From the IMG/VR virus record IMGVR_UViG_3300045988_161152: 64,000 nt of DNA. The stretch is one strand, 5' to 3'. The stretch is from a virus. Its lineage: Duplodnaviria > Heunggongvirae > Uroviricota > Caudoviricetes. Of the stretch, positions 17,732 through 42,067 are shown piece by piece. A program made the translations under genes and the position numbers. The notes under the pieces were generated by a model that searched no databases, was not told the origin of the DNA, and was given only the letters and a program-made list of their open reading frames with translations. Within the stretch, counting starts at the first letter, position 1. Each line of letters starts with the position of its first letter.

Positions 17732-18238
17732 TTGAGTATTTTCAATAAACACGCACACCAGGAACGTCCGTACATCGTCATAGTAGATATTGATGGGACG
17801 ATATCAGAGGCAACGGAAGACAGGCTGCATTTACTTCCACCACCTGGCAAAGGTGCATTAACAGAGCACTGGAACGAGTTTAACCTTGCCTGTGACACTG
17901 ATGCTCCCATCACTCCAGTTATTGATATGGTGCGCCAGTTGTCCGGCATTTACACCCTCTGGTTTGTAACCGGGCGCTGTGAGATAGCCAGGGATAAAAC
18001 ACGAGCCTGGTTGCGTAAGCACGTAACAAATGGGGCTGAGCCTTTGCTATCTATGCGTCCTGCCACCGATGACAGAAATGACGGTCCAGCAAAGATTGAT
18101 CTCCTTAAGAAAATTGGTCTAAGTAAAATTGCGTTCGCGCTGGAAGATAAGATTGAAGTGGCGCGTGTATTCAGGAGGCACGGCGTGCTTACGTTAATGG
18201 TCAGGGAGTATGAAAACGCGCTTCTCCATCAACAATAA
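17732..18238 (+). CDS. pap: HAD-superfamily phosphatase (class B acid phosphatase-like)
   Basis: 168 aa from a TTG start with GGAGG RBS; HAD motif I VDIDGT; symbol from recalled P1 gene order. Confidence 0.55.
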   Translation: MSIFNKHAHQERPYIVIVDIDGTISEATEDRLHLLPPPGKGALTEHWNEFNLACDTDAPITPVIDMVRQLSGIYTLWFVTGRCEIARDKTRAWLRKHVTNGAEPLLSMRPATDDRNDGPAKIDLLKKIGLSKIAFALEDKIEVARVFRRHGVLTLMVREYENALLHQQ

Positions 18239-18254
18239 TTGCTCTAATAAATAT
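18238..18254. promoter_or_regulatory. C1 operator
   Basis: ATTGCTCTAATAAATAT (16 of 17 consensus positions) directly after the pap stop. Confidence 0.55.
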
Positions 18255-18332
18255 TGATTTTTAAAACAGAGAAAGTGAAAATAAAAACATGCCGCAAGGC
18301 GCGGCATGTATCCAATCACAGGAGCTGAAAAT

Positions 18333-18419
18333 ATGAACACGGCATTCAAAATCATTATGGCCGCGATCTATTTCTGGCTGTTCTCTATCACTTTTGGCGG
18401 CATCGTCGCACATGGGTAA
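18333..18419 (+). CDS. 28-aa hydrophobic micro-protein
   Basis: ATG with AGGAG RBS at 8-nt spacing; MNTAFKIIMAAIYFWLFSITFGGIVAHG; not in ORF track (under 60 aa). Confidence 0.4.
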   Translation: MNTAFKIIMAAIYFWLFSITFGGIVAHG

Positions 18420-18428
18420 GGGGGATGC

Positions 18429-19016
18429 ATGAAAGGCGAAGTGAAAGAGCGCGGCATGATTTTTAACGATGAGATGGTCCGGGCAATTCTTGGCGGGAAT
18501 AAAACACAGACTCGCAGGATTGTTGAAGAAAAATTCTATGGACGGGCAGTGGCCGCAGAGTTGCTTGCCAAGCATTGTCCATATGGTCAACCGGGCGATC
18601 GTATTTGGGTTCGCGAAACCTACCGGGTACATGGCAAAGCGACGGACGTCGCAACGCTGGTTTATCGCGCAAGCGTGCGTAACTCCTGGACAGAACAAAC
18701 GCACCGGGTTCCGGTCGAGGTTTGTAATAAACCAGTATCAGAAAAGTGGACGCCATCAATTCACATGCCGCGCTGGGCATCGCGCATTCTTCTGGAAATT
18801 ACCAACGTGCGCGTTGAGCGGTTGAACGATATCAGCGAATGCGATGCAAGGGCTGAGGGCGCACCAACAGAATCGACCCTCATTGGCGATAAGCATTACC
18901 CAAGTTTCCGTAGCCTATGGAAATCAATTTATGGCGAAGATAGTTGGAACGCTAATCCTTGGGTGTGGGTAATCGAGTTTAAGCGTATTCAGGGGGCAAC
19001 CAGTGAGCAAAATTAA
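18429..19016 (+). CDS. ASCH-domain protein (YqfB-like)
   Basis: MIFNDEMVRAILGGNKTQTRR and C-terminal WVWVIEFKRI resemble E. coli YqfB; start may be ATG 18456. Confidence 0.6.
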   Translation: MKGEVKERGMIFNDEMVRAILGGNKTQTRRIVEEKFYGRAVAAELLAKHCPYGQPGDRIWVRETYRVHGKATDVATLVYRASVRNSWTEQTHRVPVEVCNKPVSEKWTPSIHMPRWASRILLEITNVRVERLNDISECDARAEGAPTESTLIGDKHYPSFRSLWKSIYGEDSWNANPWVWVIEFKRIQGATSEQN

Positions 19017-19707
19017 CTATCAAGAACTGCGCGAGGCGGCGGAACAGGCAACGCAAGATGAATGGGTAGCATATATTTTGCCGGGTCATAACGGCATTTA
19101 TCCTGCGCGCACGTCTGAGGGTAGGCATTGCGGATACTTTATTGACTGGCCTGGCATTGATGGACAAAGGAATGCTGGTGCCAATGCCCGTTATATCGCG
19201 GCTATCCCACCAAAAGTTGCGCTGGCGCTACTGGATAAAATTAAGCACCTGGAGGACACAAATATTGATGCCACATGCCGTATTGCGGAGTTTGAGACTA
19301 ATCTCGCGGCGCTGGTGGCAGAGAACGCCGGGCTGAAACACGCAATGGCCGTAACTCTTGAGCATGTGTCGGTCACGGATGCAGGGCAGGCTGGTGTTGC
19401 TGCAATGATTATCAACGATGCCCTATACCACAGCGAAACTCCAGCTACCGATGCTTTTCTGGCTGAAATTCGTGCGGAAGCACGCAACGAGGGGATTAAC
19501 TATACCGCCAGCCGTCTTGCTGCTGCGTTCAATCACGGATTTATCAATAAGTCTTTGCGTGAAGTTTTCGACGTTACACGCATGATTTTGTCAGCGAAAG
19601 AAGAGTTGGCTAATGAAGCGCATCCGATTGATGGCCTGTCTGGTGAATATGCGGAGAAATCCCTTGAAGAATGGGCGGAACAGATTCGCAAAGGAAGCAG
19701 CCAGTGA
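19003..19707 (+). CDS. Mosaic paralogue family member A
   Basis: 234 aa; shares MSKINYQELREAAEQA with 21002 and PATDAFLAEIRA plus a ...QIRKGSSQ tail with 19991. Confidence 0.6.
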   Translation: MSKINYQELREAAEQATQDEWVAYILPGHNGIYPARTSEGRHCGYFIDWPGIDGQRNAGANARYIAAIPPKVALALLDKIKHLEDTNIDATCRIAEFETNLAALVAENAGLKHAMAVTLEHVSVTDAGQAGVAAMIINDALYHSETPATDAFLAEIRAEARNEGINYTASRLAAAFNHGFINKSLREVFDVTRMILSAKEELANEAHPIDGLSGEYAEKSLEEWAEQIRKGSSQ

Positions 19708-19994
19708 ATATCGACACGACAATAACGATCGATACGCTCCTAAATACCGGTCTGGCACTTCTCGGTTGGCTTTACATCATGTCCCGTACATGGCGATGGC
19801 TGGGTTCCATTTTCCTAAAACAGTGGAAAAAACGGCGCAAACAGGAACTACGCCAGAAGGCATTAGAAGCGTTCTATGACGCATTTGAGCTTAGCCGCAT
19901 TGAACCAGGTACAACAGCCAGGATAGCGACAAAAGGCGACCTGATGATAGTGATGTTCCGACAGGAGAGAGCAGAGAAAGGGGAATCAGCATGA
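19704..19994 (+). CDS. Small membrane protein
   Basis: GTG overlapping the upstream stop (GTGA); hydrophobic segment LLNTGLALLGWLYIM. Confidence 0.45.
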   Translation: MNIDTTITIDTLLNTGLALLGWLYIMSRTWRWLGSIFLKQWKKRRKQELRQKALEAFYDAFELSRIEPGTTARIATKGDLMIVMFRQERAEKGESA

Positions 19995-20704
19995 AATTTT
20001 CCAAATTTTCTGAGTTGGTGAATCGTATTTTGTCCAACAACCACAGCCATCGTCGCGATATGGATGTAACAATCGTTGTTCATTCGCCTGGCAGCATTGG
20101 TTCAACACCTTCAGTTGAGGTTCAGTCAATTCACGCTGGTTTTGATTGGGATTCCGGGAAAGTGCTGATTTTCCCATCACAGCCACTGACCACGCTAACA
20201 CCAGAACAGATTACTGATATCACTGATAGTGTGCGCAAAGGTCAGTCTTGGCACGCATATCAGGAATACAAGAAGCATCAAGAGCAGTTGGAAAAATTGT
20301 CGATTGAACTGGATGCCGCAAAACAGCGCATTGCAGAGCTGGATGGTAATCGCACGGCGCTGGCAGTGGAGAATGCCTCAATGAAGCTGTTTATCAGGGG
20401 CTGTTGCTACGTGTTTGATGGCCAGCAGGATGAAATATCTGATGCGTATATCTGCGCAACAGACGGAGGGATGCCGCAAATTCCAGCCACCGACGCTTTC
20501 CTGGCTGAAGTTCGGGCGCAGGGGGTGGATGCTGCTATAGAAGCTGCAAAAAATCTGGTGGCCCAAGAATATGAGTATAAGGATTTCAAAGCGGCGCAGA
20601 GTGATTGCTGTATGCACCCTGGTTCAGACCGGGTAGGGAAGGTTGAAATGACTGAGTGGTTAGTTGACTTTGCTGCCCAGCTTCGCAAAGGAGGCAACCA
20701 GTGA
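19991..20704 (+). CDS. Mosaic paralogue family member B
   Basis: 237 aa; ATGA overlap with upstream stop; shares blocks with member A. Confidence 0.6.
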   Translation: MKFSKFSELVNRILSNNHSHRRDMDVTIVVHSPGSIGSTPSVEVQSIHAGFDWDSGKVLIFPSQPLTTLTPEQITDITDSVRKGQSWHAYQEYKKHQEQLEKLSIELDAAKQRIAELDGNRTALAVENASMKLFIRGCCYVFDGQQDEISDAYICATDGGMPQIPATDAFLAEVRAQGVDAAIEAAKNLVAQEYEYKDFKAAQSDCCMHPGSDRVGKVEMTEWLVDFAAQLRKGGNQ

Positions 20705-21000
20705 CTGTATGTCTTATTGATAAACGTCGACGTGGGCAACAAATACCATCTGTTGAAATGCCGAATCACACATGGTTTTGCGTACTTGATATCGATGGTA
20801 TGGATACGTTGGTTGACACTCGTCATTACTGCGATACCGCAACAGCTACTCCGGCGAAAGCAAAGAAAATGGCTGCTCTGATAGAAAACTGGACTCCACC
20901 TGATGGTTGGTGCAATGGGAATGATCGAGATTGGCACGAAAAAATGAAGGGCTATATCTGCGATTTTTTACGTAAATGCAACGGCTTCAGGGTGATGTGA
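20701..21000 (+). CDS. Hypothetical protein
   Basis: 99-aa ORF, GTGA-coupled to the upstream gene. Confidence 0.5.
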   Translation: MTVCLIDKRRRGQQIPSVEMPNHTWFCVLDIDGMDTLVDTRHYCDTATATPAKAKKMAALIENWTPPDGWCNGNDRDWHEKMKGYICDFLRKCNGFRVM

Positions 21001-21001
21001 T

Positions 21002-21691
21002 ATGACCAAAATTAACTATCAGGCACTGCGTGAGGCGGCAGAACGTGCAATTCCGGCAATGGAACGCCTGTTAATGTTGCCAGTTGATGATGATCTGATA
21101 AGCGAACAGGAACTTAAAGATTACGGTGTGGATATTGATGCGCTCAACGCCTTCAAATTTCTGGCCGGACCAGAAACCGTGCTGGCACTGCTGGATGAAC
21201 TGGAAAGAAACCAGCAATACATCAAACGCCGTGACCAGGAGAACGAGGAAATTGCGCTAACGGTAGGGAGGCTTCGCGTTGAGCTGGAAGGCAAAGACAG
21301 CAAAATAGCCAATCTTACCGCCGAACGCGATGCTCTTCGTGAAGGTGAGATGGGCGACGCTAGGCATAGCAACACACGGGCCGCAGCTGATATCTACTTC
21401 CAACTGGTCGAGGAGTGCGAAATTCCTGCTGGCGGATCTCTGGTCGAGTACGTTGACGATATGCGCGAGAAGCTGGAAGCCGCAGAGAAGCGCATTGCAG
21501 AGTTAGAAAGTGGTTCTCAGGCACAAAAGTTAGTTGAAGCAATCATTGTTGCGATAGAAAACGAACAGGAAAGGCTTTTTGATGAAGATTACCTAATGGA
21601 TTCGAAAGAATGCATTGACGTAATTCGTGAAGAAGTAAAGCGATGGAATGATTCCCGTGCCGCTGGCATTCGCATCAACGGAGGTGAGTAG
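21002..21691 (+). CDS. Mosaic paralogue family member C (coiled-coil)
   Basis: 229 aa; N-terminus MTKINYQALREAAERA parallels member A. Confidence 0.6.
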   Translation: MTKINYQALREAAERAIPAMERLLMLPVDDDLISEQELKDYGVDIDALNAFKFLAGPETVLALLDELERNQQYIKRRDQENEEIALTVGRLRVELEGKDSKIANLTAERDALREGEMGDARHSNTRAAADIYFQLVEECEIPAGGSLVEYVDDMREKLEAAEKRIAELESGSQAQKLVEAIIVAIENEQERLFDEDYLMDSKECIDVIREEVKRWNDSRAAGIRINGGE

Positions 21692-21863
21692 TGCGTGTGG
21701 CATGTATCGGCTTGTTACCGTACCCGACTCGTTTTTGGGCTTCTGCGCTAATTGCAAAGCCACATGTCCTGATGGCTGACAACATCATCCCGGCACCAAA
21801 GCGCCGCCATACCGGTATTGCAGCGGCACGACGAGCAGCAAAGAGACGCAGGAGAGCAAAGCG

Positions 21864-22040
21864 ATGAAAAACCGTAAGGCAAAACGACTTTTTTTACAGC
21901 GTCCTGTGCGTGTGGTGGAGCTGGTTATTAGCAACCATAAGATAGCGGTACTCCATCCATTTGGTCAGGTGGCTTTTGCCGCAAAGCGTAAGCCTACTGC
22001 GTCACAGAACAGGCGGAAGAAAGGGTACGCTGTAAGATGA
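21864..22040 (+). CDS. Small basic protein, tandem copy 1
   Basis: 58 aa, GGAGAG RBS; MKNRKAKRLFLQR...; stop overlaps the next ATG (ATGA). Confidence 0.45.
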   Translation: MKNRKAKRLFLQRPVRVVELVISNHKIAVLHPFGQVAFAAKRKPTASQNRRKKGYAVR

Positions 22041-22225
22041 AAAACCGTAAAGCAAAGATTCTGTTAGTTCGTAGAAACGCTCCTGGCGTCTGGCAGTGGG
22101 TGAGACTCAGCAACCGACGGATGGGGTTGATGAAATATTACGGGATGATGGATTGTGGTTTTTGCAAAAAGCCCAGCGCGGCGCAAAACCGCTGGAAAAA
22201 CCACTTGCGCACTAAAGGAGAGTGA
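22037..22225 (+). CDS. Small basic protein, tandem copy 2 (paralogue of 21864-22040)
   Basis: 62 aa; MKNRKAKILLVRR...; shares N-terminus and a KKPSAAQNRWK block with copy 1. Confidence 0.5.
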   Translation: MKNRKAKILLVRRNAPGVWQWVRLSNRRMGLMKYYGMMDCGFCKKPSAAQNRWKNHLRTKGE

Positions 22226-22226
22226 T

Positions 22227-22742
22227 ATGGCGTTAACACACCGCGAACTCTGTCAGATTGCGTACAAGTTCCTTAAGCGCAACGGGTTCAAGGTTTGTTT
22301 TCATGACCGCTTTATAGCTGTAACCAGTACCGGAGAACAGCCAGATGCTATGGGATTCAGAAATTCAGCATCATGCCTGATAGAGGCGAAATGTTCTCGT
22401 GCTGACTTGTTGGCAGATAGAAAAAAGCGTTTTCGTAAAAATCCGTCTCTTGGAATGGGCGACTGGCGATTCTTTATTAGTGAGCCGGGAATTATTTCAA
22501 TTGAGGATTTACCACCTGGCTGGGGATTACTTCACGTTGTTAACGGAAGAGTACGGAAAGTACATGGGTGGCCCAAGGGTAATTGCTGTTGGGGTAATCC
22601 TGACGATAAGCCATTTACTGGAAATAAGCAGGTTGAATGCGATTACATGTTATCTGCATTAAGGCGTATGGAGTTGAGAGGGCACCTTAATGAAATATAT
22701 GACGGTGTAATTGTTAATAAGAAAGAAGGAAACGCGGCATGA
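22227..22742 (+). CDS. PD-(D/E)xK nuclease-fold protein
   Basis: Start set at ATG 22227 with AAGGAGAG RBS (ORF track 22155); GEQPD...LIEAKCS motif. Confidence 0.5.
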   Translation: MALTHRELCQIAYKFLKRNGFKVCFHDRFIAVTSTGEQPDAMGFRNSASCLIEAKCSRADLLADRKKRFRKNPSLGMGDWRFFISEPGIISIEDLPPGWGLLHVVNGRVRKVHGWPKGNCCWGNPDDKPFTGNKQVECDYMLSALRRMELRGHLNEIYDGVIVNKKEGNAA

Positions 22743-23749
22743 CCACTATTGCCAAAGATCGACTACTGACAATCAAGCAGTGGCGCGAAACATACGGACC
22801 GGGTAGCAACGTTGTACTGCCAGCAGAAGAAGCGGAAGAACTGGCACGAATTGCTCTGGCATCGCTGGAAGCAGAGCCTGTTCTGTATCAGTCCTGCACT
22901 CGCCCCACTTGGAATAGCGGTGTTCCGTGGACGGAATGGAAAGAACGAAGTCGTGAGTGCTACGAAGACGATTTGCGCTTTACAGACACGCCTGACCATG
23001 CCGGTTGGATATACAAATGTCGAAAATTATATACCACTCCGCCAGCGCCGATAGCGTTAGAGGCCATCGAAAACGCAATTGAATACATCCGCAGTATCGC
23101 TTTTCACATCGATGACGACGATTACCACGGCAAACATATTGCGTATTTCATGCGACAAGCATTGGCCTGGCTGGAAGGGCATTCATGCAGCGACGACAGA
23201 CTGGGTAAGGCCGACAATCAACCCGCATCTGGTAACCAGGCTGCCGAATCCAATCGCGGTAATGAGTGGACCGGCAATCCTGATATTGATAACGCCATCA
23301 TCATGCTCGACCGCATAGATACGGCGGAAAGTTGCGATGATGACCGTATTGAGGCCGTTAAGGCTGTGTTGCGTAGACTGGCAGGCAACTATCCGGATAT
23401 TCCGGATAGTTCGGTGCCAGCGCCAGGAAAGGGCGTCACCGGTGAACGTATCCGCATTAAGCCGCATGTTTATCGCGAACTGGTTAACCGTCTCCACGAT
23501 ACAGCGATCAAGTGTGCTGGCACCCAGCAATTACGAGAAAGAATTAGCCGTGTTTTGGGCGACGTTATTACGCCATATCATCATAAACAAGCCGAGAAAA
23601 GCGGTCTGGAAAGGTGTCATCTTGAGGCAGCATTAAACATTAAGCCGGGGCATACGCTTGGCATTATTGATGCACTGTTGGTTCATAAGATGGCCAGGGC
23701 TTTATTGTCGTTGGTGGACGCTGGTGATACAAGCGAGGGTGAAGTATGA
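22739..23749 (+). CDS. Hypothetical acidic protein
   Basis: 336-aa ORF, ATGA-coupled to the upstream gene. Confidence 0.6.
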   Translation: MTTIAKDRLLTIKQWRETYGPGSNVVLPAEEAEELARIALASLEAEPVLYQSCTRPTWNSGVPWTEWKERSRECYEDDLRFTDTPDHAGWIYKCRKLYTTPPAPIALEAIENAIEYIRSIAFHIDDDDYHGKHIAYFMRQALAWLEGHSCSDDRLGKADNQPASGNQAAESNRGNEWTGNPDIDNAIIMLDRIDTAESCDDDRIEAVKAVLRRLAGNYPDIPDSSVPAPGKGVTGERIRIKPHVYRELVNRLHDTAIKCAGTQQLRERISRVLGDVITPYHHKQAEKSGLERCHLEAALNIKPGHTLGIIDALLVHKMARALLSLVDAGDTSEGEV

Positions 23750-24108
23750 GAGTTGCAGATCACATCAAACACCTTGAAAGAATTATCGAAAACGGTGAAC
23801 TCTTAAGAGATCAGATGAGACGCACGGCAGAAGCCAGGGAGGCGATAATCCGCAGTCAGGCTGGTAAATTAAAGCAATTGTCAGAGATTAACACGCTATA
23901 CAAGAACAGACGTAACCGGGCGGTGATGCGGCTTCAGAAAGCACGTAATGAAATTAAATTGGTGGAGGCAAAACTGAAAAAACAGATCCAGCGTTACGAT
24001 CAGCAAGATGCTTTTTATGCCGCCATCAAGGCGGCTGCTAATGAAATAGGCATCTGGAAGTTGCTGGTGGAGAAAGCAAAGACGAAGTTAAATGCCAACG
24101 AAAGCTGA
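23746..24108 (+). CDS. Hypothetical coiled-coil protein
   Basis: 120-aa ORF, ATGA-coupled; last gene of the operon. Confidence 0.55.
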   Translation: MRVADHIKHLERIIENGELLRDQMRRTAEAREAIIRSQAGKLKQLSEINTLYKNRRNRAVMRLQKARNEIKLVEAKLKKQIQRYDQQDAFYAAIKAAANEIGIWKLLVEKAKTKLNANES

Positions 24109-35593: not shown

Positions 35594-36154
35594 ATGAAAA
35601 CAATCGAACAAAAAATTGAACAGTGCCGCAAGTGGCAGAAGGCAGCCAGAGAACGAGCGATCGCTCGGCAACGGGAGAAGTTGGCTGATCCGGTCTGGCG
35701 AGAATCTCAATATCAGAAAATGCGGGATACTCTCGACCGCCGTATCGCTAAACAGAAAGAGCGCCCACCAGCCAGCAAAACGCGGAAAAGCGCGGTAAAA
35801 ATAAAATCTCGTGGCTTGAAGGGGAGAACACCAACGGCGGAGGAACGGCGCATCGCCAATGCTCTTGGCGCTCTCCCCTGCATTGCCTGCTATATGCATG
35901 GAGTAATATCTAATGAGGTGTCTCTGCACCATATCGCCGGTCGTACCGCGCCGGGTTGTCATAAAAAGCAATTGCCACTTTGTAGATGGCACCACCAGCA
36001 TGCAGCTCCGGCTGAAGTAAGAGAAAAATACCCATGGCTGGTCCCTGTTCATGCCGATGGTGTGGTTGGAGGCAAGAAAGAATTCACCTTGCTGAACAAG
36101 TCAGAGATGGAGTTACTGGCTGACGCCTATGAGATGGCAAACATCATGCACTAA
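35594..36154 (+). CDS. ref: Recombination enhancement function Ref (HNH endonuclease)
   Basis: 186 aa from ATG 35594; cysteine/histidine-rich C-terminal half consistent with an HNH fold; the longer track ORF would span operator and terminator. Confidence 0.8.
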   Translation: MKTIEQKIEQCRKWQKAARERAIARQREKLADPVWRESQYQKMRDTLDRRIAKQKERPPASKTRKSAVKIKSRGLKGRTPTAEERRIANALGALPCIACYMHGVISNEVSLHHIAGRTAPGCHKKQLPLCRWHHQHAAPAEVREKYPWLVPVHADGVVGGKKEFTLLNKSEMELLADAYEMANIMH

Positions 36155-36343
36155 TAAATATATTATTTTTAATGATAAATGATTGACAACTGACAAGTGA
36201 CTTCAGTCAGAATCATCACACGCCCGGTACGGATGGATCCCTTTTCAAATATTCCATGGACGGCACAGTCTGAGTACCGGGCGCTACCTTCAGTTGTATT
36301 GCTAAGCCGCCGCTGGTGGCTTTTCTTTTTTGTAGGGGGCGCT

Positions 36344-36985
36344 ATGGATAAGAAAATATGCGTTGTTTCGATGAGCGTCGGCAAACCGGCGTCAATGACT
36401 GCTGCATGGATCAATAACGAGCTGATAATGGCTGAGCGGACCAGCTACCCTGAACGCCGCCGCGATATGGAACTCCAGCTGCTGCGCGAATTGCGAGAAA
36501 AAGAGGAAAAGGGTTTTATCGTGCTGGTGGAAGAGGAAAACAGCTTTATTACTGGACGAGTTGGCCAGCGTGTAAGGTTGCGTGATCCCTTCATGAACGG
36601 TAGACCGGTACTGATTGAAGCAATGCAGATTTACAAGGAATTAGAACGCCAGAAAGCGATCAAGTTACCGCGCAAGGAATCCGGCAAATACATCCTCCAC
36701 CAAAGCATCTTCGATTCCGAACATGACAAAAAAGGCGATGAATTTTTCAACATCAACTGGAGCGAAATAACGACAGAGCACGTTCTGACGTTGTTATGCT
36801 GCTTCGCAACGGAATACAACAACGTTGCAAACTCCGACTACATCAGGGCAATGGCTGGAGAAGTTGAGCCACGCCAGGAACCATCGTTACTAAGCCCACT
36901 GATTAACATAATTCGCGGCACACAGAGACTTGCGGAAAAAAGCGTTCCACATGGAATCTTAACTGGAAAGGGAAACTATTTTTAA
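36344..36985 (+). CDS. mat: Hypothetical protein in the P1 mat position
   Basis: 213 aa from ATG 36344 with AGGGGG RBS; symbol from recalled P1 order. Confidence 0.5.
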   Translation: MDKKICVVSMSVGKPASMTAAWINNELIMAERTSYPERRRDMELQLLRELREKEEKGFIVLVEEENSFITGRVGQRVRLRDPFMNGRPVLIEAMQIYKELERQKAIKLPRKESGKYILHQSIFDSEHDKKGDEFFNINWSEITTEHVLTLLCCFATEYNNVANSDYIRAMAGEVEPRQEPSLLSPLINIIRGTQRLAEKSVPHGILTGKGNYF

Positions 36986-37026
36986 CGACCTGAGCGCCAC
37001 TTCTTTCAGGTCGTGTTGGATGTCAT

Positions 37027-37051
37027 AAAAAGGAGGTTTTCACCTCCTTTT
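37027..37051. terminator. Bidirectional terminator between mat and res
   Basis: AAAAAGGAGG-TTTTCA-CCTCCTTTT. Confidence 0.55.
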
Positions 37052-37060
37052 AAACTGGAA

Positions 37061-39973
37061 TTATGGTAATGCGCTCTTGATTAACTGATAAATATCATCA
37101 TTAGCAAACTGCGTTTTGAATTCAACTTTAACAGACTGACTTATTTGATTGAAAAGCGCCTGGGCATGTTCAATTTTCTTTTTTTCTTCAAGCCGTAAAC
37201 TATCCTTACTATCTACGTTTTTTGTTTCAATGATAAAGTTAAGATAATCACCTTCTGCTGTTTTTACAACATAAGCAAAATCGGGTGAGTAAGTGTATCC
37301 ACCAGCTACCGGGATCTTAATAGAATTCTTCGGTATCTTTGAAAAAACAACAACAGACTGGATCTCTCTATCTGTTATATTACGCCTTTCAAGCTCTGAA
37401 TCATAAAAAACTTCTTCAAAAAGATAAGTATCTAATGGTGCTTTTGAATTATCCTGTAATACACCAAGATCACTTGATAATACCTCGTCTAGAGGCTTAC
37501 CATCAGCATTTGTGAACTTTGTGGGATGAATTGAACCCGAAATCAAATTATATCCGAGGCTGAATTTATTAAACGAATTGTTCAACAAATACTTACTAAA
37601 ACCAGATTTAATTTTTCTGATTGTTTGAATATTCAGGTATTCAGTGATATTAATAGTGTCTTTTATATCACAAAAAACTTTATGTAAAGTATCGTGTTTA
37701 ACAAAAATAGTCTGTGATAAGTTATCGAGAAACTCTCGATAACTCATTGTGTTTAGCTTAGCAAAGTCATCGTCATCACTAACAATGCTTTTCGACATTG
37801 CCATATCATTGTGGATGTAAATTTTATCAATGCGAGTATGAACGCCTGATTTGGTAAATCGTTCTGTTTCTTCGAGCATGAATGACTTGAAAATGGATAA
37901 AAACTCATTTTCACTGTTTATTTTGTACTCAATCACCGCTTTTTGATTGATTAATTCCCATAGTTCTTTCAGCTCACTGAACTTACCAACACGCATTTTA
38001 GTGCGTCTTTTTCCATCAGTAGCTTTTTTGATTTTACCTGGTTTCACTCCTATAGGGAATGCTGCTGGATATTTGGATTTTAAGCGGCTGTAGGCATCTG
38101 AATCTTTGAAATTATCATTGTCATCAATGATTTCATCATTGAAAAGTTCATTCATTAGTGCTCTGGATGAAAGCTCAGGATACTGAGCCCTGATTTGTTC
38201 CTTAAGCTCTTGAGTAAACTTACTTGGAACCCTTTCTTTGAAAGAACTCTCATTGACCTCTTTAACAAGTGAGTCAACAAAATCCTTTTCTGTAAAATCG
38301 ACATAATATTTAAGGGTAAAATTGCGGTCTTTCACTCGACACATGTATTCATTCACAGGAAGACGCAAACCGCGCCCTACCTCTTGAAGCTTGGATGTGG
38401 TACTACCGCTCGAACGGAGCTTACAGATCTGAAAGACATTAGGATTATCCCATCCCTCACGCAACGTCCATTTGGAGAAAATGAAACGACGTGGATTATC
38501 TAAAGACAGCAAAAGCTCTTTGTCATGAAGGATTTCGTTGATTTCCTTCTCGATTTTATCATCCTTATCACTGTTATCTTTTGAAAAATAACCGCCATGA
38601 ACGGAAGATATATCTTTAACTGTTTTTTCAAGATAGTTACTATAAAACTCATCTTTTTCTATTTTTAACAGTTCATTAGCTTCTGCCAAAACATATTCTT
38701 CGAACTTAGCTTTCAAACTTCCGGCAATATTATTACCGTCACGATAACCTTCAATATCATCAATAAAGAAAAGAGTAAGAGGCTTTATGCGTGGCCTTTG
38801 TGTCAGAAACTCTTTTTCTAACTTAAAGTGTTCTTTGATAGCTTTCCTCATCATGCTGTCAGCAAGTGTCTGATCGTAAGAATAGGGGTTTATTGAGCAA
38901 CCAATTTTTAGCTCAATACCATTACTCAACACTACTGTATTCTTGCCTAAGGCATCAAGAGTTAAATCGTGAATAGCACTATGTGTCTTAGATAGAGATT
39001 CACCTTTTGTTAACTTAAATAAAGTTTTCTTGTTATTTTCATTTAGCTCAAATGTAACTTCTTCCCCATCAGATTTAATGAACTTTAGGTTGGCGTCACC
39101 ATCACCAACAATATCCTCAATGTACGCATCAATACCTTTAACAAGGTCTTCATTAAATGCATCCACAGCTGTAAGTCGATAAACTAAATTCTTATAGCCT
39201 TCACTAAAGGTCGCACCGTAGCGGATAATATATTGAGCATTAAACTTCTCTATATTTTCCCATGTCTTTTTACCAGTAGGAAATTTATGTGGTTCATCAA
39301 TGATAATGAATGGTTTTACCGCACCAAGAGCTGAAAAGGGAGAATCAAAATGATTGTCAAGCAAGCCAACATCATAAGTGGAATTTAAATTCTTAGAGTG
39401 AATCATTCCCGTGTTAATAACAAGAACGTGTATATATTTCTTATTGAAATTACTAGCTTCAACAAAATCATGTATAGCTTGAGGCATATACGATTTTGTG
39501 CTTTTACCGGCATTTTTCTGACTTTCAACAACGTAAGTCTTTATTTCACGCTCATAATCATCTCTAAAGTGTTCTTTTAACGCATCGCTTTTCAAAAAGT
39601 TCACTGTTCCAGCTTTGATCGATAGAGTAGGAACAATAATGATAAACTTATTAATGCCAAATGATTTGTTCAGATCAAAAATTGTTTTAGTGTAGGTATA
39701 CGTTTTACCTGTACCTGTCTCCATAGAAACATCAATTACGTTGCTTCTAGCATCGTAATTATTTTTTACATGTTCAATACCATTGAGTTCCTGAACTTTT
39801 TTTATATTTTTATAGTATTGCTGTTCAGTAAGCCGTAATTCTGGATTAACTAACAGGCGAATAGAAACATTATCCTCCTGATGAGATGTCGCGGAAACAA
39901 AAACGTTCATCACCGCATCGACACCTGCTTTCTGATGCGGTAAGTTCTTTTCGAATGTGAACCCTTTTGACAT
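37061..39973 (-). CDS. res: Type III restriction enzyme Res subunit (SF2 helicase/endonuclease)
   Basis: 970 aa; helicase motifs (GTGKTYT, DEPH); AT-rich; immediately downstream of mod. Confidence 0.9.
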   Translation of the reverse strand: MSKGFTFEKNLPHQKAGVDAVMNVFVSATSHQEDNVSIRLLVNPELRLTEQQYYKNIKKVQELNGIEHVKNNYDARSNVIDVSMETGTGKTYTYTKTIFDLNKSFGINKFIIIVPTLSIKAGTVNFLKSDALKEHFRDDYEREIKTYVVESQKNAGKSTKSYMPQAIHDFVEASNFNKKYIHVLVINTGMIHSKNLNSTYDVGLLDNHFDSPFSALGAVKPFIIIDEPHKFPTGKKTWENIEKFNAQYIIRYGATFSEGYKNLVYRLTAVDAFNEDLVKGIDAYIEDIVGDGDANLKFIKSDGEEVTFELNENNKKTLFKLTKGESLSKTHSAIHDLTLDALGKNTVVLSNGIELKIGCSINPYSYDQTLADSMMRKAIKEHFKLEKEFLTQRPRIKPLTLFFIDDIEGYRDGNNIAGSLKAKFEEYVLAEANELLKIEKDEFYSNYLEKTVKDISSVHGGYFSKDNSDKDDKIEKEINEILHDKELLLSLDNPRRFIFSKWTLREGWDNPNVFQICKLRSSGSTTSKLQEVGRGLRLPVNEYMCRVKDRNFTLKYYVDFTEKDFVDSLVKEVNESSFKERVPSKFTQELKEQIRAQYPELSSRALMNELFNDEIIDDNDNFKDSDAYSRLKSKYPAAFPIGVKPGKIKKATDGKRRTKMRVGKFSELKELWELINQKAVIEYKINSENEFLSIFKSFMLEETERFTKSGVHTRIDKIYIHNDMAMSKSIVSDDDDFAKLNTMSYREFLDNLSQTIFVKHDTLHKVFCDIKDTINITEYLNIQTIRKIKSGFSKYLLNNSFNKFSLGYNLISGSIHPTKFTNADGKPLDEVLSSDLGVLQDNSKAPLDTYLFEEVFYDSELERRNITDREIQSVVVFSKIPKNSIKIPVAGGYTYSPDFAYVVKTAEGDYLNFIIETKNVDSKDSLRLEEKKKIEHAQALFNQISQSVKVEFKTQFANDDIYQLIKSALP

Positions 39974-39975
39974 GA

Positions 39976-41916
39976 TTAGTTCCTTACCACTAAATCTAAC
40001 TCAATAGATTTTTTGTTAGCATAACTTTTTAGCGCCTCATTAAGCTCCCTTTGTTTTGCACTTTCAAAGTTACAACCATAAAACACGACTTTGTTTGGGG
40101 CAAAATCTTCATCTGAATCCAGCTTTTGGAGCAACGCTTTCAATGCTTCGCTAGTAAAATTAGGTGCAATCAAATACAGACGGCCATTGCAAAAGTGTGC
40201 TGTATAGCCACTAAGATCAACATCTTCAATAGGTGTTGTTAACAAGCTACCATCATATACACACCATGTAGTCAATAGGGCATCATACTGTTCAGGCGTT
40301 AATACCGCATCATCAAAGAATGTATGATTAGTGAGCGTAAGTTCAGACTCAACTTTTGCTCTAAAGTCATCAATAGTATGAATCACTTTGAAACCTATTT
40401 TAGCCGCATTATCACTTGTGGTTGTGCTTTTTTTAAATACCTCCTGTATCCTTTTTTTTGTTATTTCAAAAATAGATCTATAGCCAAGAGAATAGGCATT
40501 CTTTGTTTTATTTATAACTTCATCTTTTTGTATGCATATAAAATTCCTACAGCCTGAATCTTTTTCATTTAAATATGCAACAGCTTCTGCTGTCGTACCA
40601 GAGCCAGCAAAAAAGTCAAGAACTAATGAATCCTTTTTTGTTCCTATTTTTACAAGATCGGTTATAAGAGGAACAGGTTTTGGTCCTTCAAATAATTTTG
40701 CACCTAAAAGATTTTTAAGCTCAGTTGTCGCCGTGCTTGTACTATATTCAGGTTTATACCAAATTGATTTTGGCTTTTTAGTTGGTAGCTCTCCAAGAGC
40801 AGGCCGCTGTTTTTTATAGATATTTTTACCATCTTTTATATCTATTACTATTAGATTATAAAACTCATCATTTATTTTTTTCTTTCCCCACGACCATGAA
40901 AGCTCTTCACCCGTAGGGCTTACTGGGTAAAGTACATAGTCATCTTCGTTAAGAGGTTTATCATCATCTGTTACATAAACCTTATTTTCTGAATTGATGA
41001 ATACCGGAAACCAACCTTTTGGTCTTGATTTTCTAGAAGCATCTTGGCCAGTACGCTTTAATGTATCAGCTCTTTTAAATAGCCCATATTCATCTTCATC
41101 CCACTCTTTTTCAACTTCACTTTCATCAATATCGAATTGCCCCAAACTACAAACATCTTTGTTTTTAGCGTATACATATATATATTCATGCGTATCTGAA
41201 AAGCCAAAGTTATCATGATTGCCTTTGAGATTCATGATTGTAGGGAGTTTTGCAACAAAATTACCTTGCCCAAATACTTCGTCGCATAATAATCCCAACT
41301 GTTTATCTTCGTTATCGTCTATGGAGATGAATATTACTCCATCCTCTTTTAAAAGTTCACGTGCAATATAAAGACGAGGATAAATGAATGTCAGCCATGC
41401 ACTATGACTGCTTGAACCCTTGGTGGTAAATTCAAGTATGCGGTTAGCCTCATCAAGCTCGATACCTGCCAGTTCAGAAAGCTGTTCTGGTGTAAACTTG
41501 CGATCATCGTTATAGACGAATCCATCTTTACCCGTATTGTATGGTGGGTCAATGTAAATCATATTCACCTTTTCAGCATAAGCATTAACCATATGCTTCA
41601 ATACTTCGAGGTTATCCCCTTTGATTAACAGGTTTTGACTGTTCTTGTTCTCTTCTTGTTGGTTATGTGTTTTATCTTCTGCCAACAACGTTTTCGGTGG
41701 TAGATTGGCCAACAAACGGGCATAAGATTTACCCAGCCAGTTTAAACTGTATGATTCTTTAGAGAGTTCAACCTCCGATGCTCTAATAATCTCAAGCAAT
41801 TTTTCTTGAATGAAGGCTCCGTTTTTATCAAAACACTGTGGGAAATTAGCTTTCAACACAGCCAGTTGCTTGCTGTTAGCCGTTTCTACTTCGGAAAAAA
41901 TCGTTTCTTTTTTCAT
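39976..41916 (-). CDS. mod: Type III N6-adenine DNA methyltransferase Mod subunit
   Basis: DPPY catalytic motif and FFAGSGTT SAM motif; start set at MKKETIF (646 aa) from recalled Mod length; track ORF extends to 41937. Confidence 0.85.
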   Translation of the reverse strand: MKKETIFSEVETANSKQLAVLKANFPQCFDKNGAFIQEKLLEIIRASEVELSKESYSLNWLGKSYARLLANLPPKTLLAEDKTHNQQEENKNSQNLLIKGDNLEVLKHMVNAYAEKVNMIYIDPPYNTGKDGFVYNDDRKFTPEQLSELAGIELDEANRILEFTTKGSSSHSAWLTFIYPRLYIARELLKEDGVIFISIDDNEDKQLGLLCDEVFGQGNFVAKLPTIMNLKGNHDNFGFSDTHEYIYVYAKNKDVCSLGQFDIDESEVEKEWDEDEYGLFKRADTLKRTGQDASRKSRPKGWFPVFINSENKVYVTDDDKPLNEDDYVLYPVSPTGEELSWSWGKKKINDEFYNLIVIDIKDGKNIYKKQRPALGELPTKKPKSIWYKPEYSTSTATTELKNLLGAKLFEGPKPVPLITDLVKIGTKKDSLVLDFFAGSGTTAEAVAYLNEKDSGCRNFICIQKDEVINKTKNAYSLGYRSIFEITKKRIQEVFKKSTTTSDNAAKIGFKVIHTIDDFRAKVESELTLTNHTFFDDAVLTPEQYDALLTTWCVYDGSLLTTPIEDVDLSGYTAHFCNGRLYLIAPNFTSEALKALLQKLDSDEDFAPNKVVFYGCNFESAKQRELNEALKSYANKKSIELDLVVRN

Positions 41917-42067
41917 ATCCATTTTAAACCAGATCATTTAGCAACAAAGCGCCGCCTCCCCAGCCCGTTAGAGCCAGAAGTTGTGGCACTATCACTATCT
42001 ATATGTTTGAAGAATCGTGCTTCTTTGAGCGATGCTCGGTGAGCAAACAGCCATAATTTGGGGAAGT

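Follow-up and report, generated by a model that had tools for sequence, protein, structure and literature searches.

Three genes in a 64,000-nucleotide (nt) stretch of virus record IMGVR_UViG_3300045988_161152 (Caudoviricetes), here called the window, encode proteins A, B and C, which we assign by sequence comparison to a single modular family of accessory proteins from temperate phages. Of the three, A and C classify as Ead/Ea22 proteins, while A and B carry a C-terminal region of the EaE/Oad2 type. Members are built from a short helix at the N-terminus, in some cases a beta-rich domain, then a coiled coil in the middle, and a variable C-terminal part that a short conserved end closes. The operon that holds the three genes starts at the C1 operator controlling pmgT in phage P1; the array replaces pmgT and pmgU, and part of the cassette is ~94% identical to Shiga-toxin (Stx) lambdoid phages. 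The explanation that we consider likely overall is that members of a known modular family, placed in a C1-linked operon, are swapped at short conserved DNA blocks and act as binders whose specificity is set by variable cassettes.

The original prediction, made from the DNA alone, had described A, B and C as a mosaic family of paralogous coiled-coil proteins encoded in one operon of a P1-family element. It missed the identity of the family, which is the known Ead/Ea22 and EaE family, with mosaicism that had already been published (PMC10834534, PMC7093339).

Three members of a known modular family

Protein A (19003..19707, + strand) has 234 amino acids (aa) and a GTG start, and is named 'ead/Ea22-like' by the Prokaryotic Genome Annotation Pipeline (PGAP). 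Protein B (19991..20704, + strand; 237 aa) is named 'hypothetical' by PGAP, and protein C (21002..21691, + strand) has 229 aa. All three open reading frames (ORFs) are intact, lie on the same strand and are interleaved with DUF4752 and DUF7739 genes, and their products are acidic (isoelectric points of 4.5-5.2). They are the only family members within the window. BLASTP and DNA repeats confirmed these ORFs and their predicted shared blocks at both the protein and the DNA level. A and B can be aligned along B's whole length, with a BLASTP match (E = 2e-8, 26% identity over 172 aa) that covers the N-domain, the coiled coil and the PATDAFLAE motif. The match between A and C (E = 6e-7) is confined to the N-terminal 82 aa, and that between B and C (E = 0.002) to a single coiled-coil segment; identity among the three outside the blocks is 26-32%. 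Because all three match the same profile, phrog_368 (E = 6e-68 for A, 2e-75 for B and 6e-39 for C), these similarities reflect homology rather than low complexity.

With membership defined as a score above the curated gathering threshold of 27 bits, Pfam family PF13935 (Ead_Ea22) includes A (89 bits, 5.6e-25) and C (97.6 bits, 1.2e-27). B gave no Pfam match at E <= 0.1 and falls outside PF13935. The N-terminal MS.IN.QALREAAE segment and the central coiled coil are present in A and C; B has the coiled coil, but its N-terminal helix differs from the A/C segment. The beta-rich N-domains of A and B align through the pattern PG..G..P…G..DW..D, and the N-domain of B also occurs alone in Pseudomonas, Aeromonas and Klebsiella phages. 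The final third of A matches P22 EaE (3e-15), ST64T Eae and ES18 gp43, B matches annotated EaE at 6e-6, and Oad2 (HK446 gp27) aligns with both B (E = 4e-9 over 170 aa) and A (E = 1e-8). Direct alignment gave no match between C and Oad2. Over residues 1-102, C and lambda Ea22 are 53% identical (BLASTP 3e-26); beyond these residues C has a different and very acidic C-terminal domain. Full-length homologues of C occur in phages BP9 (69%) and SF11 (53%). On these alignments B, 'hypothetical' in RefSeq, is a genuine family member. A homologue search with B returned hits of at least 92% identity throughout the 120 listed, and its exact sequence is found on >500 contigs.

The layout of A comprises an Ead/Ea22-type N-terminus (helix and beta-rich domain), a coiled coil, a hinge (19438-19464), a variable core (~19477-19671) and the terminus QIRKGSSQ-stop. 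B has a different N-terminal helix, a beta-rich domain, a coiled coil at about residues 88-127, a hinge (20483-20509), a core (~20528-20668) and the terminus QLRKGGNQ-stop. C joins a classical Ea22-type N-terminus and coiled coil to an acidic, cassette-type C-terminal domain (21286-21654), and closes with AAGIRINGGE-stop (21662-21691). RefSeq flags C as a partial pseudogene (5303-5809, equivalent to 21002-21508 of the window) in a record that is 100% identical over 18200-22300. Since ORF C is intact and full-length homologues exist, this flag is doubtful; the mosaic C-terminal domain probably misled the annotation.

The proposed coiled coils are moderately supported, by low-confidence helices, heptad statistics and the published biophysics of the family (PMC10834534). 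AlphaFold2 models of B (predicted local distance difference test score, pLDDT, of 50.7, from a shallow 8-row alignment) and C (58.4, from a single sequence) can be used for secondary structure only, because their pLDDT is too poor; both predict a long central helix, at residues 87-138 in B and 57-115 in C. Heptad periodicity gave p = 0.02, <0.004 and 0.02 for the three proteins, in a crude test that missed the long helix 57-115 of C and flagged 143-174 instead. Searching solved structures with the three protein sequences returned nothing significant, the lambda Ea22 C-terminal domain (8DSX) being in the library and unmatched. NCBIfam and PADLOC assigned none of the three to a family, and no toxin or defence-system domain was detected with Pfam, NCBIfam or PADLOC.

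A hinge and a conserved end enclose a hypervariable core

In the alignment of A and B, the C-terminal region shows a conserved hinge (PATDAFLAEVRAQGV) and a conserved end (…QLRKG-x-x-x-stop), and the core between the two bears no relation to that of other members. We defined EaE/Oad2 anatomy as a PATDAFLAEVRAQ hinge and a …QLRKG-x-x-x end around a variable core, and this arrangement was found in both A and B. A HMMER scan of 1.84 billion cluster representatives yielded only 214 relatives, of which the best 150 were examined. The hinge was present in 113 of these 150 listed representatives and was followed by at least 62 unrelated core types of 12-100 aa, after which the end (F)A.QLRKG… closes the region; the loci that we fetched contained 20 core types.

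The coiled-coil segment LAAENAG.K and the hinge TPATDAFLAEVRAQ of Oad2 are found in A and B, which also resemble it in size and acidity; the end QLRKGGNQ is identical, and B has the terminal DNA block of Oad2. The stretch between hinge and end is unrelated to that of Oad2, and the N-terminal parts differ. Oad2 is a relative of P22 EaE that binds and inhibits the P2 OLD abortive-infection nuclease with high specificity and works alone, while an HK75 homologue that is 54% identical to Oad2 is inactive against OLD (bioRxiv 10.64898/2026.07.10.737580). The same preprint notes that the Oad2/EaE group is sometimes fused to EaD/Ea22 proteins, and this fusion is the architecture of A. In our comparison the initial ~70 residues, the hinge and the end of Oad2 recurred unchanged in its HK75 homologue, whereas the pre-hinge linker and the core were wholly different. 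With the divergence of the two confined to linker and core, the reported contrast in activity would map to the variable cassettes.

The Stx2c phage Stx2_5044 carries, at 2578-3057 of the fetched sequence and ~0.9 kb upstream of a gene with A-type and B-type parts described below, a 159-aa gene with the N-terminus of Oad2 (MKQMSLIEMDGFLKGKCIPRDLKVNETNAEYL), the hinge and a core resembling that of Oad2. Judging by this resemblance, the gene may be orthologous to oad2.

Candidate functions of A, B and C

By analogy with Oad2, we propose that A, B and possibly C would be acidic oligomeric binders of host or immune proteins, drawing their specificity from the variable cassettes. C might instead, or in addition, act like the Ea22 proteins of lambda and Stx phages and bias infection towards lysogeny. 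The suggestion that this is a host-interaction or anti-defence locus is sustained in part: Oad2 provides a precedent for A and B, whereas Ea22 proper, the group of C, is known as pro-lysogenic only. An anti-defence or host-modulating role for the three proteins is argued here from their relatives.

A competing explanation, which we take seriously but find doubtful, is that A, B and C all modulate lysis and lysogeny in the manner of lambda and Stx Ea22, as early proteins that favour lysogeny or host survival and have no role in immune evasion. C has the N-terminus and coiled coil of lambda Ea22, A and C score above the Pfam Ead_Ea22 threshold, and the operon is under a phage repressor. The Ea22 proteins of lambda, phi24B and P27 are tetrameric and pro-lysogenic (PMC10834534, PMC7093339), and deletion of ea22 leads to faster induction and less lysogenisation in lambda and Stx phages (PMC7093339). 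The likeness to lambda and Stx Ea22 (PF13935; PDB 8DSX) extends to the N-terminal MS(E/K)IN(S/Y)QALREAAE segment, the central coiled coil (53% between C and lambda over 102 residues), an acidic and swappable C-terminal domain (acidity of the Ea22 domain, PMC10834534), the conserved …IRIKG(G)E end, early repressor-controlled expression and the published mosaic structure of the genes (PMC10834534, PMC7093339). Against this explanation, the C-terminal domains, which are thought to bear specificity, are unrelated to those of lambda (PDB 8DSX) and of the three published Stx variants, and A and B are nearer to EaE/Oad2, for which anti-defence activity has been demonstrated. B has no such N-terminal signature and is not recognised by the Pfam model. 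The setting also differs, with three family genes in the window instead of one, in a P1-type operon controlled by C1/OpmgT instead of the lambdoid exo-xis or early-left region. P1 lysogeny takes the form of a plasmid under different decision circuitry; moreover, these genes are absent from reference P1, and P7 has just one.

Recombination at shared DNA blocks

The similarity among the three genes is concentrated, at the DNA level, in short blocks. A 5' boundary block encoding M-S/T-K-I-N-Y-Q-x-L-R-E-A-A-E opens A (19003..19051) and C (21002-21050; + strand, repeat family D1) and appears as a 48-nt repeat with 85% identity (19004-19051 / 21003-21050). The hinge block PATDAFLAE(I/V)RA, a crossover site, is shared by A (19436..19476) and B (20478-20518; + strand, repeat family D3) as a 41-nt repeat with 85% identity. 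The type I terminal block of A (19681..19707) and B (20678-20704) is a 27-nt repeat with 89% identity, and a partial copy lies at 18991-19006 (+ strand; repeat families D7 and D9). C ends in a variant of a second terminal block, type II (21662..21691, + strand; …AGIRINGGE-stop), in which GGAGG stands 6 nt ahead of the GTG at 21691. Additional blocks lie in the coiled-coil region (A/B, 51 nt, 73%; B/C, 35 nt, 83%).

Recombinants at these blocks were found in other phages, as expected of the predicted mosaic family of shuffled blocks. Phage Stx2_5044 carries a hybrid gene, the front two-thirds of which is A-type (81% nt identity to 19011-19467) and the end of which is B-type (97% to 20478-20704); the switch from A to B falls within the PATDAFLAE block. 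The gene that follows the hybrid has the front of C (92.6%), and the last 12 codons of C together with the downstream gene (97%), around a different C-terminal domain. Because this gene has both flanks of C and another C-terminal domain, with breakpoints in C at 21285/21286 and 21654/21655, the stretch 21286-21654 of C is a cassette. Among P1-type elements, the backbone identity to P7 and JL22 (98.8%, ASCH gene) ends at 19007, 5 nt into A, and P7 begins another gene at the same GTG. The N-domain of A is only 50% identical between plasmids in which the remainder of A is 89-100% identical.

We extended the comparison to 160 loci from viral contigs, picked by similarity to B and C, and distinguished 27 module architectures among them. 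The four blocks had a majority-base conservation of 0.88-0.96, compared with 0.39-0.59 in their flanks, a contrast in which the conservation of the blocks themselves is partly ascertained, as they were found by similarity, and only the diversity of the flanks is unbiased. The 5' INYQ.LREAAE block (0.88 conserved) joined 29 upstream to 13 downstream context types, with 61 four-gamete quartets, and the hinge block joined 16 to 17 (56 quartets). The type I terminal block, 0.92 conserved between flanks at 0.41-0.59 in 128 unique contexts, joined 21 upstream to 28 downstream types (89 quartets), and the type II block, 0.96 conserved, joined 13 to 23 (24 quartets). The blocks are thus short stretches of almost identical sequence set within flanks that are unrelated, and recombinants have been seen at them. 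Relics of further gene starts stand directly behind the terminal blocks of HK446 and lambda (see Discussion).

We propose that these blocks would serve as homology handles for the exchange of cassettes by Red- or Erf-type phage recombinases. Recombination through short conserved flanks, and efficient Red recombination with ~30 bp or diverged homology, are established (PMC2327257). The blocks resemble the boundary 'linkers' of the lambdoid modular theory in that short conserved sequences flank exchangeable modules and offer ~30-50 nt of homology, enough for phage recombinases. They differ from linkers in that several handles in the window lie inside coding sequence and delimit protein domains, and in that two also supply the following gene with its ribosome-binding site and start codon.

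Conserved termini coincide with translation signals of the next gene

According to Dydecka et al. (PMC7093339), all Ea22 proteins end in K/RGE, a feature the significance of which they called unknown. Among 166 unique 3' junctions of the family, two near-invariant 27-nt blocks dominate, both of which stand ahead of many unrelated downstream genes. The type I block, CAGCTTCGCAAAGGAGGCAACCAGTGA (…QLRKGGNQ-stop), holds a ribosome-binding site, a 6-nt spacer and the embedded GTG of the next gene, overlapping the TGA stop. The type II block consists of GCTGGCATTCGCATCAAAGGAGAGTGA followed by nATG (…AGIRIKGE-stop), and lambda ea22 ends with the same block. The motif AAAGGAGG lies at 19690-19697, at the end of A, and at 20687-20694, at the end of B (+ strand); AAGGGTGG is a synonymous recoding of it. 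The distance from GGAG(G) to the start codon is exactly 6 nt in both block types and at all four junctions of the window (from motif start to start codon, 18992 to 19003, 19693 to 19704, 20690 to 20701 and 21680 to 21691, + strand). Coupled junctions made up 92% of the 166 unique family junctions, compared with 44% of 860 non-family junctions at the same loci.

Four features suggest a constraint on the DNA of the termini. Conservation at third codon positions is as high as at the other two positions within the terminal blocks, while third positions of the hinge drift, down to 0.41. The last 16 nt of the ASCH gene (18991-19006) are a copy of the type I block in another reading frame (…GATSEQN-stop). 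C ends in NGGE, having lost the basic residue of K/RGE and kept GGAGG; its close relatives end in KGGE or KGE, and A and B have a related but distinct terminus (KGSSQ and KGGNQ). Finally, 68 of the 111 hinge-bearing representatives, among those listed, end exactly 3 residues past (R/K)xG. We infer from the third-position conservation, the out-of-frame reuse, the terminus of C and this fixed spacing that the termini are constrained at the DNA level, and suggest that the terminal peptide motifs, K/RGE included, would be largely the protein-level shadow of a ribosome-binding site and start codon. The out-of-frame arrangement at the ASCH gene is repeated in one viral contig (2489-3019).

Could the blocks be conserved only for peptide function, for example as hinge and terminal helices in a fixed frame, with recombination and the ribosome-binding site incidental? 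The codon-periodic variation of the hinge is as expected under protein-level selection, the low-confidence model of B contains helices (168-197 and 218-232) that could pair, and HK446 and lambda retain the blocks although no functional gene lies downstream. We nevertheless think this unlikely, in view of the lack of excess third-position variation in the terminal blocks, the other reading frame of the same 16 nt at the ASCH gene and the loss in C of the lysine of K/RGE with retention of GGAGG. The 6-nt spacing holds in both terminus types despite the different peptides after the glycine (E-stop and x-x-Q-stop), and that glycine is encoded by GGA, a rare codon in E. coli.

Origin of the three-gene array

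Tandem duplication within the plasmid lineage, followed by divergence, might at first explain three same-family genes on the same strand within 2.7 kb, with direct repeats ~1 kb and ~2 kb apart. This is very improbable: identity outside the blocks is too low, closer relatives exist elsewhere (97% for the end of B and 92.6% for the front of C, both to Stx2_5044), unrelated genes separate A, B and C, and other P1-like elements carry 0, 1 or 2 copies in differing combinations. Duplication in situ is effectively refuted by the identity levels and the closer relatives. The term 'paralogous' holds in the sense of same-family genes in one genome and not in that of recent local duplicates, and A, B and C are juxtaposed family lineages. 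A comparison of copy number across P1-type elements gave no copy in P1, one in P7, one in JL22, two in MH422554 and three in the window and its relatives, and the N-domain of A was swapped between plasmids. The sub-block A-DUF4752-B is present in many P1-like plasmids, an arrangement that the papers on this variable region do not describe.

An equally remote reading is that each variable core and the small gene that follows it (DUF4752 or DUF7739) form a toxin/immunity-like pair, as at polymorphic toxin loci. A conserved motif is followed by a hypervariable C-terminal cassette and then a small gene, DUF4752 contains a hydrophobic segment, and the type of core is statistically associated with the gene downstream (mutual information z = 9.5). 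Yet this association is many-to-many: the core type of B was found in 8 different downstream contexts, and in Stx2_5044 it is directly followed by an Ea22 gene. A recombination-prone block separates core and downstream gene, no toxin or defence domain was detected in the searches above, and Oad2 works alone (bioRxiv 10.64898/2026.07.10.737580). We reject this reading on account of the many-to-many linkage.

That the blocks are chance or low-complexity matches, a concern given their shortness (27-51 nt), the spurious similarity that coiled coils yield and the coiled-coil-only match of B and C, has practically no probability left and is refuted by the E-values of 2e-8 and 6e-7, the matches to a common family hidden Markov model (phrog_368) and the reappearance of the same blocks, aligned with gene starts and stops, at hundreds of loci, so that the alignments proposed as a check excluded coincidence.

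The accessory operon and its phage-plasmid setting

Nucleotide comparison bore out the P1-family origin of the window. Its 4.1-kb segment 18200-22300 is 100% identical in ~9 plasmids of E. coli, Salmonella and Shigella (for example NZ_CP058881), and an Stx2c phage matches 19011-22888 in five aligned pieces at ~94% identity that cover only part of the span. A P1 C1-repressor operator, the homologue of OpmgT/Op88, lies directly after pap at 18238..18254 (+ strand), with 1 mismatch to the consensus ATTGCTCTAATAAATTT, and overlaps the predicted operon promoter. The homologous site of reference P1 carries the annotation C1 operator OpmgT (formerly Op88) and overlaps the pmgT promoters predicted there (PpmgT); its P7 counterpart is labelled Op(hea). 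The window contains 14 C1-operator-like sites, where 0.24 would be expected by chance, consistent with the multi-operator immunity system of P1; scattered examples lie at 2414, 12473, 16097, 16146, 33358 and 53334. Between the operator and the first genes, 18287-18309 forms a perfect 10-bp GC-rich hairpin, which was scored as a terminator for the - strand alone.

The operon's first large gene encodes an ASCH-domain protein (PGAP name; 18429..19016, + strand), a homologue of P7 upf86.8. Its stop reaches 19016, beyond the start of A at 19003, and gives a 14-nt overlap. A is followed by the DUF4752 gene (19704..19994, + strand; Pfam PF15944, 2e-42; PGAP start), the true start of which is the GTG at 19704 that overlaps the TGA stop of A, with GGAAG 6 nt ahead. 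B is followed by the DUF7739 gene (20701..21000, + strand; Pfam PF24881, 1.5e-21), with a GTG start that overlaps the TGA stop of B. Downstream of C the ORF list gives a small ORF (21691-21867, + strand) and two small basic paralogues (21864-22040 and 22037-22225, + strand). These overlapping tandem ORFs encode 58 and 62 aa, both beginning MKNRKAK…, and their starts carry a common 21-nt repeat; in Stx2_5044 an IS3-family element occupies the place of the first. A phrog_9263 gene (22227-22742, + strand; PHROG match), an EaA-like gene (22739-23749, + strand; P7 and JL22 annotations, PHROG match) and a pmgV homologue (23746-24108, + strand; P7 and JL22 annotations) follow. Mosaicism extends to the EaA-like gene: its opening ~48 codons (to 22882) and its last part (from 23380) are 98-99.8% identical to P7, its middle differs, and its N-terminal peptide MTTI.K.RLLTIKQWRETYGPGSNVVLPAEEAEELARIALASLEA is found again ahead of other protein bodies.

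The array of 12 genes from the ASCH-domain gene to the EaA-like gene thus stands in place of pmgT and pmgU, with pmgV kept. The pmgT-pmgV stretch is the published hypervariable 'region 8' of P1-like phage-plasmids (PMC9603915). P7 upf88.3 and JL22 'ra22' belong to the same family and lie in the same operon, at the same position between pap and pmgV; they differ from the window in being single copies, where the window has three with DUF4752 and DUF7739, and reference P1 has none. All junctions in 19003-24108 are of four kinds, a 4-nt overlap (GTGA/ATGA), a 14-nt overlap, a 1-nt overlap and a 1-nt gap, and a terminator scan found no convincing + strand terminator in 18300-23600. From the tight gene packing and the absence of terminators, co-transcription and translational coupling of the operon are a well-founded inference. 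The operon would be silent in the lysogen and expressed as a single transcript once C1 repression lifts, with translation of each gene coupled to that of the preceding one. The original prediction of one tightly packed unit was correct, and this unit stands behind a P1 C1 operator; its further claim that tight coupling shows co-expression holds for the coupled junctions, while co-expression is indicated and not proven. Elsewhere in the window, the region 36000-42000 has a G+C content of 0.36-0.40, compared with ~0.49 elsewhere, and a reversed GC skew, and probably represents an insert, foreign or variable, in the phage-plasmid.

Discussion

Several points weigh against our explanation, besides the ascertainment of the blocks and the sampling of loci through similarity to B and C. 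The terminal blocks, at 27 nt, are longer than a ribosome-binding site needs, and they persist where no functional gene follows: in HK446 a relic 20-codon Ea22-type stub (MSKIDYQALRE…) stands directly after the oad2 terminal block (8450-8512 of the fetched sequence), and in lambda a 5-codon gene-start stub directly after that of ea22 (about 1330-1350 of the fetched sequence). Because the blocks are over-long and persist in this way, protein-level constraint and recombinational (historical) homogenisation probably also contribute to their conservation. Co-transcription is deduced from gene packing and the absence of terminators, and the poor models (pLDDT of 51 and 58) give no fold-based support. 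The only phenotype of Ea22 proper is pro-lysogenic, and two-hybrid screens gave no partner (PMC10834534). Since the cores of A and B differ from that of Oad2 and the HK75 homologue with a different core is inactive, activity against OLD is not predicted for them; with cores in A, B and C unrelated to that of Oad2, OLD is probably not their target.

A bolder form of our explanation, which we put forward tentatively and consider rather improbable, is that hinge, core and end form the plug-and-play specificity cassette of an Oad2-like counter-defence family, in which each of the at least 62 cores would be directed at another host immune or stress target. The handles would let recombinases swap cores or genes without breaking translation of the operon, since two of them bring along the ribosome-binding site and start codon for the gene that follows, and A, B and C together would give the P1-type phage-plasmids that have them a counter-defence battery of three specificities borrowed from lambdoid phages.

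The family, its mosaicism, the variable region of P1-like elements and one anti-defence member were already published. New here are the recognition of B as a member, the three-gene array in P1-type plasmids with a cassette partly common with Stx phages, the hinge/core/end anatomy and its diversity, the mapping of breakpoints to four conserved blocks and the explanation of the K/RGE and RKGxxQ termini through the ribosome-binding site and start codon that serve the following gene. This provides a simple, testable account of the K/RGE terminus of Ea22, left unexplained in published work, and a clean example of recombination handles within coding sequence. It also corrects annotation, B being a family member and C an intact gene that is flagged as a partial pseudogene in one identical RefSeq record. 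P1-like phage-plasmids commonly carry resistance genes in E. coli and Salmonella, and their counter-defence content affects their spread. If A and B do work like Oad2, the family would comprise dozens of candidate inhibitors of bacterial immune systems, with a clear rule for which part to swap in order to alter the target.

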